Positions 34,501-37,500 of a DNA stretch of 64,000 nucleotides are shown piece after piece (within the stretch, counting starts at the first letter, position 1; the number at the start of each line of letters is the position of its first letter). Made by a program: the position numbers. This DNA is from Pirellulales bacterium (GTDB lineage: Bacteria; Planctomycetota; Planctomycetia; Pirellulales; PALSA-1355), in NCBI GenBank assembly GCA_963733035.1, contig CAVTBU010000005.1:992001-1056000 (forward strand), written 5' to 3'.

Positions 34501-37500
34501 CGGGTTGGATCATTTCCGCATAGCTATACTGCCGGCCGGGCAGTCGAAACAGGTAACATTGAGGAGCCCCCGGTGTACTATCGGGGTCCGCTTCGTTCGA
34601 CGGCGGGACGATACTGGTGAATGTTCCAGTTTCTGCGTCGGTGAGGCGAAATGCCTCGCCGGCGAGCAGTTGGCTGCGGATGGCGAACTGCGGGCAACTA
34701 TCGAGCAGCGACGTTTGCACCGAGGCCACGAGTTCCACTGTTGAAATTGCGCCTTTGCGATCGTGAGCCGTGGTCCGCCAATAGATTTGCGTACGCATCT
34801 GCGGCGCTGGACGATCGTTGTAGGTGACAACTAGGTCGCCACCGCGCACATAGCGATCGATGTCTGCGGCGGATTCACTGGCCGGAGTCGGGGGCAACTC
34901 GGGTGCAAGAGGATGAAAGCCGGCGATCACCTGTCCATCAACTCTGACTTGTTGCAATCCGCCAGCGGGATTTGTCGGATCGACGACCGCCAAAAACCGC
35001 TCTAGTTGAAGACAAATCGTGCGATCGTCTACGTCCTGCCACGGCCGCATGGTGTCGGAATCCGTCGGATCAAAACTATCGAAGGAGGGCAAAAGTCGAA
35101 AATAAAAAAACCCCGCCGCTCGCGCGAGGCGAAACGGCGGGGCCGGAACAGAGAAGAGGCCGATCAGTTTGCGAGCTGCAAGAATAATTTTGGATAAGGC
35201 CGACTGCCAAAAGACAGTCCTATGCTCGCGAACTCGGGGCTACTCCCTCCGCTCGCTGTTGATCTTACCACAATTGCGCACGCAAGCAATAGTCTGCGAG
35301 AATTTTTTCTCACAATTTACAGCCGTGTCAGTCTCCAGGGGGGGAATCGGATTGTTGGCGGAGTCCGACCGCTTTCCTATAATCCCTGCGCGTAATAACC
35401 AACTTTCGGATCAGTGATTTCGCAGGACGCCCCTAGTGCCCGACTTTCTAACGCTTTGTGAACATGCGGCCCGCGCCGGAGGTGACAAGCTGCTCCAATG
35501 GGTTGGGCGTTTCAACGTGCGTGAAAAGGGTCCCCGAGACCTGGTCACGGAGGCTGATCTGGCCTCGCAAGAGGCGATTAGGAACGTCATTCAAGCAGCC
35601 TTTCCCGACCACGATTTCGTCAGCGAGGAGGGGGACGGGCCGGTGCGCCTCGACGGAAAGTACTGCTGGGTGGTCGATCCGCTAGACGGTACGACAAATT
35701 ACGTCCACCAAATTCCCCATTACGCGGTTTCCGTGGCACTCCTTGAGCACGGCACGCCGCTCGTGGGAGTCATTCATGACCCAGTCAATAACGAGTGTTT
35801 CGCTGCTCAACGCGGGCGCGGGGCAACTTTGAACGGCCAGTCCATCCACACGAGCGGAGTTAGCGATATTGCACAAGCCGTGGTAGCGGCAAGTTTTGCC
35901 GCCGAAGTCCAATTTCCGTCGCCAGAGGTCGATCAGTTCGTAGCGGCTGTCCAGGCGACTCAGGGTGTCCGTCGCACTGGCTCGGCCGCCTTAAATCTCT
36001 GTTACGTGGCATCAGGACGGTTCGATGCGTTTTGGGCGCTTAGCACGAAGGCTTGGGACGTGGCGGCCGGAGTGTTGCTGGTGGAGGAGGCGGGCGGAGC
36101 CGTCACGCGGCTCGATGGAGGACCGTTTGACTTGAGTGAGCCGCGTCCGGTGGCCACGGCCAGCGCGGCCTTGCAGAATCGATTCTGTAGGCTGCTCATC
36201 GATGCCAGGCCTTTGCGCTAAGTTACAGCGTCGTAACAATTTGACGCCGCCAACCGGAGTGAATTCGCAGCCGCGTCTGCGAACACGCGCAGATGCGGTA
36301 TCCCGTGGCAATAGTTTTGAGGTTGCGGGCGAATCGAATTAGACTGAAAGGTGATTTCTCCCATCTACTTTCGCAATACCTAACCGGTTTGGGCGTGCTC
36401 GACGCGTGGCCGGCAGCTCATGGGCGTTTTTGCCATGCGACCGCGACTCTGGAAAACCGGGGGGCTATTGTTCTTCGCGATGGCCAACAGCCTTTTTGCG
36501 CTCGGTGTGTTGGCTCGAGCCCAGGACGAGTCGTCCGCTCCGAACGGCGCGACGGCCGATGCCGCAAGCCCCCTGACGGCCAAGTCGGCAGAGAATGCCA
36601 ACGAAGCTTTACCCTTCGAAGTCAAGCCTGGAGTTTTCTATGTCAGGGACGAGCACGGCAAGTTGCAGCCCGTGCCAGGCATGTGGACCTACTCACAACT
36701 CATGGAGCTGTGGAAAGACAAACATCAGCTTGCCGGTGGGAACCAGCGACCAGCCTACAGCTTGGAGCAACTAGAGATTTCCGGTACGGCATCAAACACG
36801 AGCGCCGAACTGATTGCACGCTTCAAAATTGTCGTACACGAATCCGGCTGGACCGGTGTGCCTCTGCGACTCAACGGAGCGGTGATGCGGGACGCGGCGG
36901 CCTACGACGGTCCCGGTCAGCAGGTCATGCACTTTGACCCTGACGAAGATGGCCACGTAGCCTGGATCCGCAGCCAAGCCGATGAGACCCACACATTGAC
37001 GCTCAAGCTACTGTCCACTGTCGAACAAGTTGGGCCGCAGTCGCGACTAAAATTGAGTCTTCCCCGTGCCGCGGACGGTCAGTTGCAACTACAGGTGCCC
37101 CTGGGGAATGCGGTCGCAGAAGCAAGTGAGGGCAGCATCCTTGATGCCGTGCGGCCACTGGCGGGCGGAAAGACGGAATTGCGCGTGATCGGCGTGGGCG
37201 GCGACTTCGAGCTCACTTGGCACCCCGCCGACAGCAACGTCGCGAGCGTGCCAACCATTCTGGAGGCAAGCACCACACAGCTCATTCGCATCAACGGACG
37301 CAGTGCGAACACAGAGGTCACGCTCAAAGTCGGCAGCCTAGGGAGTGAATTCGATCATTTTCAAGTTCGGTTGCCGCCTGGAGCAGACTACGTCGGAACG
37401 CCCGAAGCCGGTGTTTCGCTTGTGGCCGTGGACGTCTCAGCGGCCGAGGGCAAGCTCTACGATGTGCGACTCGAGAAGAAAACAACCGGTCCGGTGGAAG

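Follow-up and report, generated by a model that had tools for sequence, protein, structure and literature searches.

Transcription of the noncoding RNAs CrcZ, GlmY and Qrr is driven by sigma54 and its activators. A close described counterpart of the RNA pair analyzed here is found in Bacillus subtilis, for which no RNA hub protein is known. There, RosA acts as a stand-alone sponge of about 229 nt, with three purine-rich regions complementary to the C-rich sRNAs RoxS and FsrA (PMC8216469). In Caulobacter, an induced, independent sponge, CrfA, masks the seed of the abundant repressor sRNAs SisA-D, and Qrr/QrrX is cited alongside (PMC12559287). STARs are engineered trans RNAs complementary to a linear region and to the 5′ half of an intrinsic terminator that precedes a gene (PMC5648800). 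Our literature search returned no described regulatory sRNA for the planctomycete group and one planctomycete-linked RNA motif, Rhodopirellula-1, which is a multi-copy cis-type hairpin (PMC2864571).

Here, we analyze a 64,000-nt stretch of a Pirellulales genome (the window). Coordinates without a contig or locus name are positions in this window, whose position 1 is position 992,001 of contig CAVTBU010000005.1. The find is richer than an earlier survey had noted: a putative sRNA (RNA A) together with a multi-site partner (RNA B) that has a predicted sigma54 promoter.

The pair resembles RoxS/FsrA-RosA in combining a C-rich sRNA with a stand-alone, multi-region sponge. However, the RosA promoter is of the sigma-A type (PMC8216469), while that of RNA B is of the sigma54 type; there is no sequence match (Rfam), the phylum is a different one, and the main RNA B site spans 21-24 nt and enters a terminator stem. 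The A/B pair works like RoxS/RosA in our reading, and is not a member of that family. SisA-D/CrfA shares the logic of a repressor countered by a sponge, but is Hfq-mediated and sets one sponge against sibling sRNAs (PMC12559287), whereas here one sponge with several sites faces one sRNA. RNA B shares its noncoding nature, repeated motifs and sigma54 promoter with CrcZ, GlmY, Qrr and the CsrB-type decoys (for the decoys, PMC6546359). The repeats of those RNAs bind proteins or mRNAs, whereas the RNA B repeats are complementary to another conserved noncoding RNA, and palindromes lie downstream of RNA B. Compared with STARs (PMC5648800), RNA B is natural, has several sites and reaches only the base of the stem; antitermination is a candidate function. 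Rhodopirellula-1 has a different consensus and no C/U-rich core (PMC2864571).

RNA A appears undescribed in the literature searched, where its literal motif occurs in 0 papers; supplements lay outside the scope of that search, so an entry in a large catalogue is possible. As the survey had reported, no Rfam family fits: both loci give only chance rows (E 0.45-3.5). The RNA A feature is real and apparently new.

Anatomy of RNA A

RNA A is very probably a planctomycete small regulatory RNA that has escaped annotation. On the minus strand, from 35290 to 35095, a −35 and an extended −10 element are followed by a variable stretch of about 95 nt, a C/U-rich 24-mer, a G+C hairpin, and seven U residues. 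The −35 element (35284-35289), positioned by comparison with homologues, reads TTGCTT here, and TGGACA, TAGACA, or TTGACA in most homologues; a consensus promoter scanner did not list this promoter. The extended −10 element, TG-G-TAAGAT, occupies 35262-35270, and transcription is predicted to start near 35256, giving a predicted RNA of about 153 nt (35104-35256). A promoter pattern drawn up after the loci had been viewed is found upstream of the core in 99 of 110 loci and in 1 of 110 in each of two controls, in agreement with the sigma70-type promoter that the survey proposed. The promoter-to-core distance ranges from 5 to 192 nt (within 25 nt in 21 loci), which bears out the variable 5′ part. 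This part holds a second, weaker motif, GC(C/A)UNAU (35194-35200), present in 37 of 68 long copies against 2.1 expected from shuffles, for a motif picked after viewing the loci.

The near-invariant 24-mer (35138-35161) comprises a pairing region of about 18 nt, made up of the core CUGUUCC and the anti-SD-like CCUCUU, and 6 nt that belong to the left arm of the terminator. The survey's picture of a fully single-stranded 24-nt seed thus fails, both because of this overlap and because the core is predicted to be mostly paired with the 5′ end of its own RNA in this genome; over 97 copies, it is predicted to be partly paired inside RNA A, at a mean unpaired probability of about 0.5. The intrinsic terminator (35104-35143) consists of a G+C hairpin at 35143-35111 and a U7 tract at 35110-35104. 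Its stem shows compensatory changes: over 44 homologues, it is 99% paired, with 13 two-sided cells, a level reached in 0 of 500 shuffles. A terminator regex accepts 146 of 151 core matches in the loci examined (partly redundant; 138 distinct). The five misses are three variants of hairpin plus T tract, one truncated copy, and one B-type match. The terminator that the survey described is thereby confirmed.

Minimal homologues of about 60-70 nt contain promoter, core, and terminator and nothing else, and are too short for coding. A gene reducible to core and terminator excludes a coding role, and a 6S/SRP-like rod is likewise out since the 5′ part can be almost absent. RNA A has its own promoter and an intrinsic terminator without a conserved ORF, as expected of a trans-acting base-pairing sRNA.

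Distribution of RNA A

The survey had called the RNA class-wide. This is too wide, since one large family lacks it: a 22-mer of the core is present in 147 of 251 class genomes, including 49/54 and 37/60 in two large families and only 2/61 in family f32, where one match inspected is not an RNA A copy. A covariance model of RNA A, run on five f32 and five core-negative order genomes, returned only generic terminators (≤26 bits) and no diverged RNA A at such sensitivity. Among relatives, the 24-mer is found at ≤3 mismatches in 55 of 61 genomes (reversed control 0), a few of the single matches being sites of RNA B. In other classes, the 22-mer matches 8 of 272 genomes and its reversed control 18 of 272. 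This is chance level, as expected from the survey's claim that the seed is absent beyond the class. Named matches in the collection (at least 120 loci) come mostly from Pirellulaceae/Pirellulales, Gemmataceae, Isosphaeraceae, Lacipirellula, and Thermogutta, with a few stray labels. Three loci labeled as an archaeon (L053), Stellaceae (L095), and Alcaligenaceae (L115) carry the exact core and terminator, L095 also the linked downstream gene described below; they are probably mis-binned planctomycete DNA.

The invariance of the 24-nt seed stands within the order, where it is near-complete, and gives way outside it, where invariance is limited to roughly the first 18-19 nt and the terminator-arm part varies with compensatory changes. 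Extra stand-alone RNA A copies occur at five loci (L471, L474-L476, L046), several with compensatory changes in that same part of the 24-mer. In the genome analyzed here, the 24-mer is single-copy at ≤3 mismatches. At ≤5 mismatches its sole other match is C6:870394, which we call locus B.

The partner RNA B

Locus B has an ABC-transporter gene on one side and a DUF1549/DUF1553 gene on the other. Of 20 second core matches compared, one proved to be another RNA A copy, one was without B features, and the remaining ones align. These loci share, on the strand that complements the RNA A core, a layout of sigma54-type −24/−12 promoter, sites complementary to RNA A, and a long, variable hairpin. RNA B itself is a predicted noncoding RNA of about 240 nt (C6:~870452-870205, minus strand), within a unit of promoter, sites, hairpin, and palindromes that spans C6:870155-870480 (= L001:4756-5081). 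It holds three to four sites complementary to the RNA A 24-mer: a near-perfect complement of 21-24 nt, a split complement, and GGAACAG..GAGGC. Sites 2 and 3 are predicted to be able to pair mutually.

The −24/−12 motif, of the sigma54 type by its consensus, precedes the sites in all 23 loci that bear them (21 matched by regex and two CGGC variants; of 27 loci considered, 4 were chance loci). Downstream of RNA B lie 2.5-3 TGT-N11-ACA palindromes per locus, of the type typical for enhancer-binding activators, and these may have a role of their own. A palindrome regulon was rejected: at ≤2 mismatches, the genome has only the palindromes of B and one other intergenic site, which points to no particular activator; a further match, at C5:114484, is an unrelated repeat. 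In the family without RNA A, one genome (L462:940-1110, G128) has a palindrome cluster without a sigma54 promoter or complementary sites. Iteron-like short direct repeats beside a helix-turn-helix-like ORF (L291:1440-1535) resemble the B palindrome by chance.

No conserved ATG ORF is found in RNA B, and 15 of 33 copies have no ATG ORF whatever. A type I toxin-antitoxin system is therefore out, as RNA B encodes no conserved small peptide.

A seed-free model of the RNA B 3′ end finds matches in 56 of 61 relatives. Among 29 loci found with it, 28 have a sigma54 motif 223-281 nt upstream, about half of the genomes behind these loci being training genomes of the model. B-like sigma54 units that include a core complement are seen in only three genomes of family f33. 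Outside the order, L466-L468 (from G167, G193, and G197) each have a sigma54 unit resembling RNA B that contains GGAACAG and the complete complement of the core, followed by a different 3′ part. A 16-nt B pattern gave mostly chance matches in unrelated phyla of the genome collection and true RNA B in four of eight planctomycete-labeled loci examined. A strict pattern of promoter plus site, found in 4 of 251 genomes only, is too strict for mapping RNA B.

Pairing and co-loss

Predicted A:B duplexes reach −38 to −51 kcal/mol, against −27 to −36 for the reversed seed and −13 to −24 for the other strand. Among 44 intergenic sigma54-like sites in the genome, RNA B pairs best with RNA A (−38.9; next −26.6). 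The split sites and variable spacers of RNA B fit RNA pairing and not a DNA-binding protein. RNA B would thus be an independent noncoding RNA complementary to the target-pairing region of the sRNA, as the partners of a sponge pair are.

The survey also held that a complementary partner is co-lost with RNA A, and we recover this pattern: of 35 order genomes, 24 have both RNAs, 3 only RNA A, 2 only RNA B, and 6 neither (Fisher p 0.001, overstated by kinship). Genome G126 was scored A-positive here, with an RNA A copy that carries a 1-nt insertion. Both B-only genomes retain the promoter and the hairpin, and their sites have decayed to control level (−26 and −25). In two fragmented genomes (G017 and G054), RNA B has intact sites and no RNA A was found. 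A search for compensatory A:B changes gave none; G126 has the insertion, and G156 and G164 are without RNA A. As a reading of these sequences, a stand-alone sRNA that acts in trans and has a complementary partner, lost along with it, finds good support.

The six RNA B bases opposite the RNA A terminator arm are conserved in 32-41 of 41 loci. In co-folds with the isolated main site, the arm is opened in 13 of 14 cognate pairs; when the first 100 nt of RNA B are included, the equilibrium fold leaves the terminator closed. The predicted contact supports either destabilization of mature RNA A or antitermination in trans. RNA B alone cannot explain the invariance of RNA A, because its 3′-end model matches 1 of 106 genomes outside the order, where RNA A is equally conserved.

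Protein context and expression

Neither Hfq nor ProQ has a match in the genome (92% complete), as the survey had found. There are 14 CsrA matches genome-wide, and the genome encodes rpoN, no fewer than 11 complete sigma54-activator domains, and RNase III. Within the window, a csrA paralogue adjoins two MpsC-domain genes (60881-63600), and a sigma54 activator domain gene lies at 6455-6952, about 28 kb from RNA A.

Nineteen sequencing runs contain small shares only (≤0.07). RNA contigs from four runs cover the core and terminator of relatives only, at a depth of 2-4 and without ends or strand; several run past the terminator. These data neither prove nor refute transcription of RNA A and RNA B.

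Candidate mRNA targets

At 5,126 start codons from a crude call, the 18-nt free core forms duplexes with energies no better than those of 12 shuffled seeds. GGAACAG, the complement of CUGUUCC, is enriched in the windows from −50 to −1 (28 vs 13.2 expected; rank 33 of 16,240). The enrichment is strand-specific, as its reverse complement occurs 13 times against 15.4. The motif lies near the start of 40 genes, and seven candidate targets were followed across orthologues.

At the pilM ribosome-binding site, GGAACAG is kept in 24 of 30 orthologues, with its position shifted in some; unrelated upstream 7-mers are kept in ≤3 orthologues and flanking overlaps in ≤8. The site overlaps the SD, which may account for part of its conservation. 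It is missing from three of three scored A-negative genomes. For pilT, GGAAC(A/G) is found in 16 of 30 orthologues; the site also recurs upstream of a DUF1598 gene (7/17) and a MoxR gene (5/8), against a background of 4.6%. A DUF6690 gene and a sensor kinase gene were rejected (site in 1/30 orthologues each); the candidate at C5:2522132 belongs to a paralogous family whose orthologues are not assignable. Family-level mRNA targets of RNA A are thus plausible. No target explains class-wide invariance, since the pilM site is absent in 5/5 genomes of other orders (four of them A-positive) and in 4/30 closer ones. Ribosomal RNA or another long complement was also rejected: a 16S gene is present, the top gapless complements include no rRNA locus, and 200 matches compare with 215 in the reversed control.

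Proposed mechanism

We propose, with a probability of roughly 0.6, that RNA A is an Hfq/ProQ-free translational repressor neutralized by a sigma54-induced, multi-site sponge in the manner of RoxS/RosA. The proposal draws on anatomy, conservation, complementarity, and co-loss, all at the sequence level, from which we infer transcription, pairing in vivo, direction of regulation, activator, and signal. RNA A would be transcribed from its sigma70 promoter, and its CUGUUCC and CCUCUU elements would pair with GGAAC(A/G)G...G(A/G)AGG at or just before ribosome-binding sites, which would block translation of mRNAs such as pilM and pilT. To judge from promoter and palindromes, an enhancer-binding activator would fire the RNA B promoter, and the three to four complementary sites would sequester RNA A. 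The main site, pairing over 21-24 nt and entering the RNA A terminator stem, would probably expose RNA A to decay, with RNase III as a candidate nuclease. Sequestration would release the targets. Pairings of this length suggest that Hfq or ProQ is not needed.

The downstream gene and other readings

RNA A is followed on the minus strand by a linked gene (34289-35050) for a 253-aa Planctomycetota hypothetical protein, a candidate read-through gene; divergent from it on the plus strand is a syntenic suhB-like inositol monophosphatase gene (35436-36221). Inside the order, each neighbor is present in 27 of 30 loci, so the survey's varying flanks do not apply there; over the wider set, the usual downstream gene is missing from 37 of 121 loci. 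The gene is linked in two named Isosphaeraceae records and not in named Gemmataceae ones. Comparison of the protein with Pfam and PDB sequences gave 0 matches. Its model (pLDDT 92.5) resembles a galactose-mutarotase-like beta-supersandwich (Z 15-16, rmsd 3.0-3.9, ≤11% identity), a predicted assignment of fold and not of function. A uxaC-like glucuronate isomerase gene (32899-34185) stands directly after the mutarotase-fold gene, is within 12 of 30 relatives' loci, and hints at uronate or sugar metabolism. At 36420-46855, a pair of adjoining ORFs of very large size (1138 and about 2330 aa), without a Pfam match, is followed by a polysaccharide export gene and a TPR protein.

The survey had cautioned that RNA A could attenuate this gene where adjacent, and the caveat is stronger than stated. 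RNA A might chiefly be an attenuator leader, with RNA B binding the linear region together with the 5′ arm of the nascent terminator as a natural trans antiterminator that allows read-through upon sigma54 activation; we consider this unlikely. In up to 84 of 121 loci (the last search iteration being slightly noisy) and in most loci of the order, the gene comes after RNA A and invariably shares its strand, often starting 14-50 nt past the U tract, which leaves no room for its own promoter. In gene-bearing loci, complementarity to the linear region as well as the 5′ arm lies before a same-strand gene, the geometry of synthetic STARs (PMC5648800). The conserved arm-facing bases and the arm opening by the isolated main site would fit, as would genome G046, where RNA A is cleanly absent from an intact suhB/downstream-gene locus, the gene comes straight after the spacer, and RNA B was not found. 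However, besides the loci without the gene, there are 23 of 110 loci in which the opposite strand carries the longest downstream ORF, and the extra copies of RNA A stand alone; together with the minimal copies, such loci agree with the survey's stand-alone, trans-acting RNA as a sequence reading. Moreover, RNA B covers only 6-7 bp of a 12-15-bp stem that stays closed in the longer context, its multiple partial sites suit titration, and arm invasion is equally explained by destabilization of the mature RNA. A double role, in which terminated RNA A represses type IV pilus and other mRNAs and RNA B opens the terminator, silencing RNA A and turning on the mutarotase-fold gene, is similarly doubtful.

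We regard it as improbable, too, that GGAAC(A/G)G is a protein site, for example of a CsrA paralogue, with RNA B as a CsrB/CrcZ-like sigma54 decoy, the pilM and pilT leaders as protein targets, and RNA A as a mask of RNA B. The many CsrA matches and the absence of Hfq and ProQ would suit such a decoy, and RNA B has 3-14 GGA and 0-4 ANGGA per copy. Their placement in hairpin loops is not systematic, although several loops read CGGAAC. According to PMC6546359, CsrA recognizes GGA motifs and is also able to promote the pairing of sRNAs with mRNAs. Against the decoy, the best-kept parts of RNA B (GGGGCC and GAGAAGAG) lack GGA and match RNA A base for base, some copies have only three GGA and no ANGGA, and the sites decay where RNA A is lost. 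Furthermore, csrA leaders in the genome pair weakly with RNA A (best −15.6 to −28.6), and RNA A persists in families where RNA B is not found. In G213 (L470:700-1170), a sigma54 promoter precedes a csrA-like gene whose leader has a near-full complement of the RNA A core and several GGAAC words. A link between the sRNA and CsrA is possible, and this leader is a point on the side of the decoy.

It is quite improbable that RNA B is the 5′ leader of a DUF1549/DUF1553-DUF1501 operon, the main mRNA target of RNA A, with its hairpin as attenuator. A same-strand DUF1549 gene does follow RNA B in 27 of 29 loci, and the hairpin has a weak U tract. Yet the gap of about 200 nt between hairpin and gene contains three palindromes as well as, on visual inspection, a distinct sigma70-like promoter pattern, RNA B precedes an unrelated gene in L037, and its sites lie >300 nt from the start codon. 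It is very improbable that the motif functions at the DNA level, as a protein site or a repeat, or that it is a mere conserved terminator: RNA contigs lacking ends and strand would allow it, but the strand-specific promoter with covarying terminator, the variable promoter distance, the single copy, the spacers of the split RNA B sites, and the strand-specific GGAACAG enrichment before start codons all argue for a regulatory RNA.

Significance

In a group without Hfq or ProQ here, and with many CsrA paralogues and sigma54 activators, an sRNA of deep conservation with a dedicated, multi-site sigma54 sponge offers a defined, testable RNA circuit. Its first candidate targets are type IV pilus genes, which bear on attachment and the life-cycle switch. 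Should RNA B antiterminate, it would be a natural counterpart to a mechanism so far engineered; and if the double role were true, RNA B would represent a STAR occurring in nature: it would be encoded in trans and cause antitermination at an intrinsic terminator, within a circuit that is chaperone-free and conserved throughout an order. The A/B pair may thus serve as a model for chaperone-free RNA-RNA regulation.
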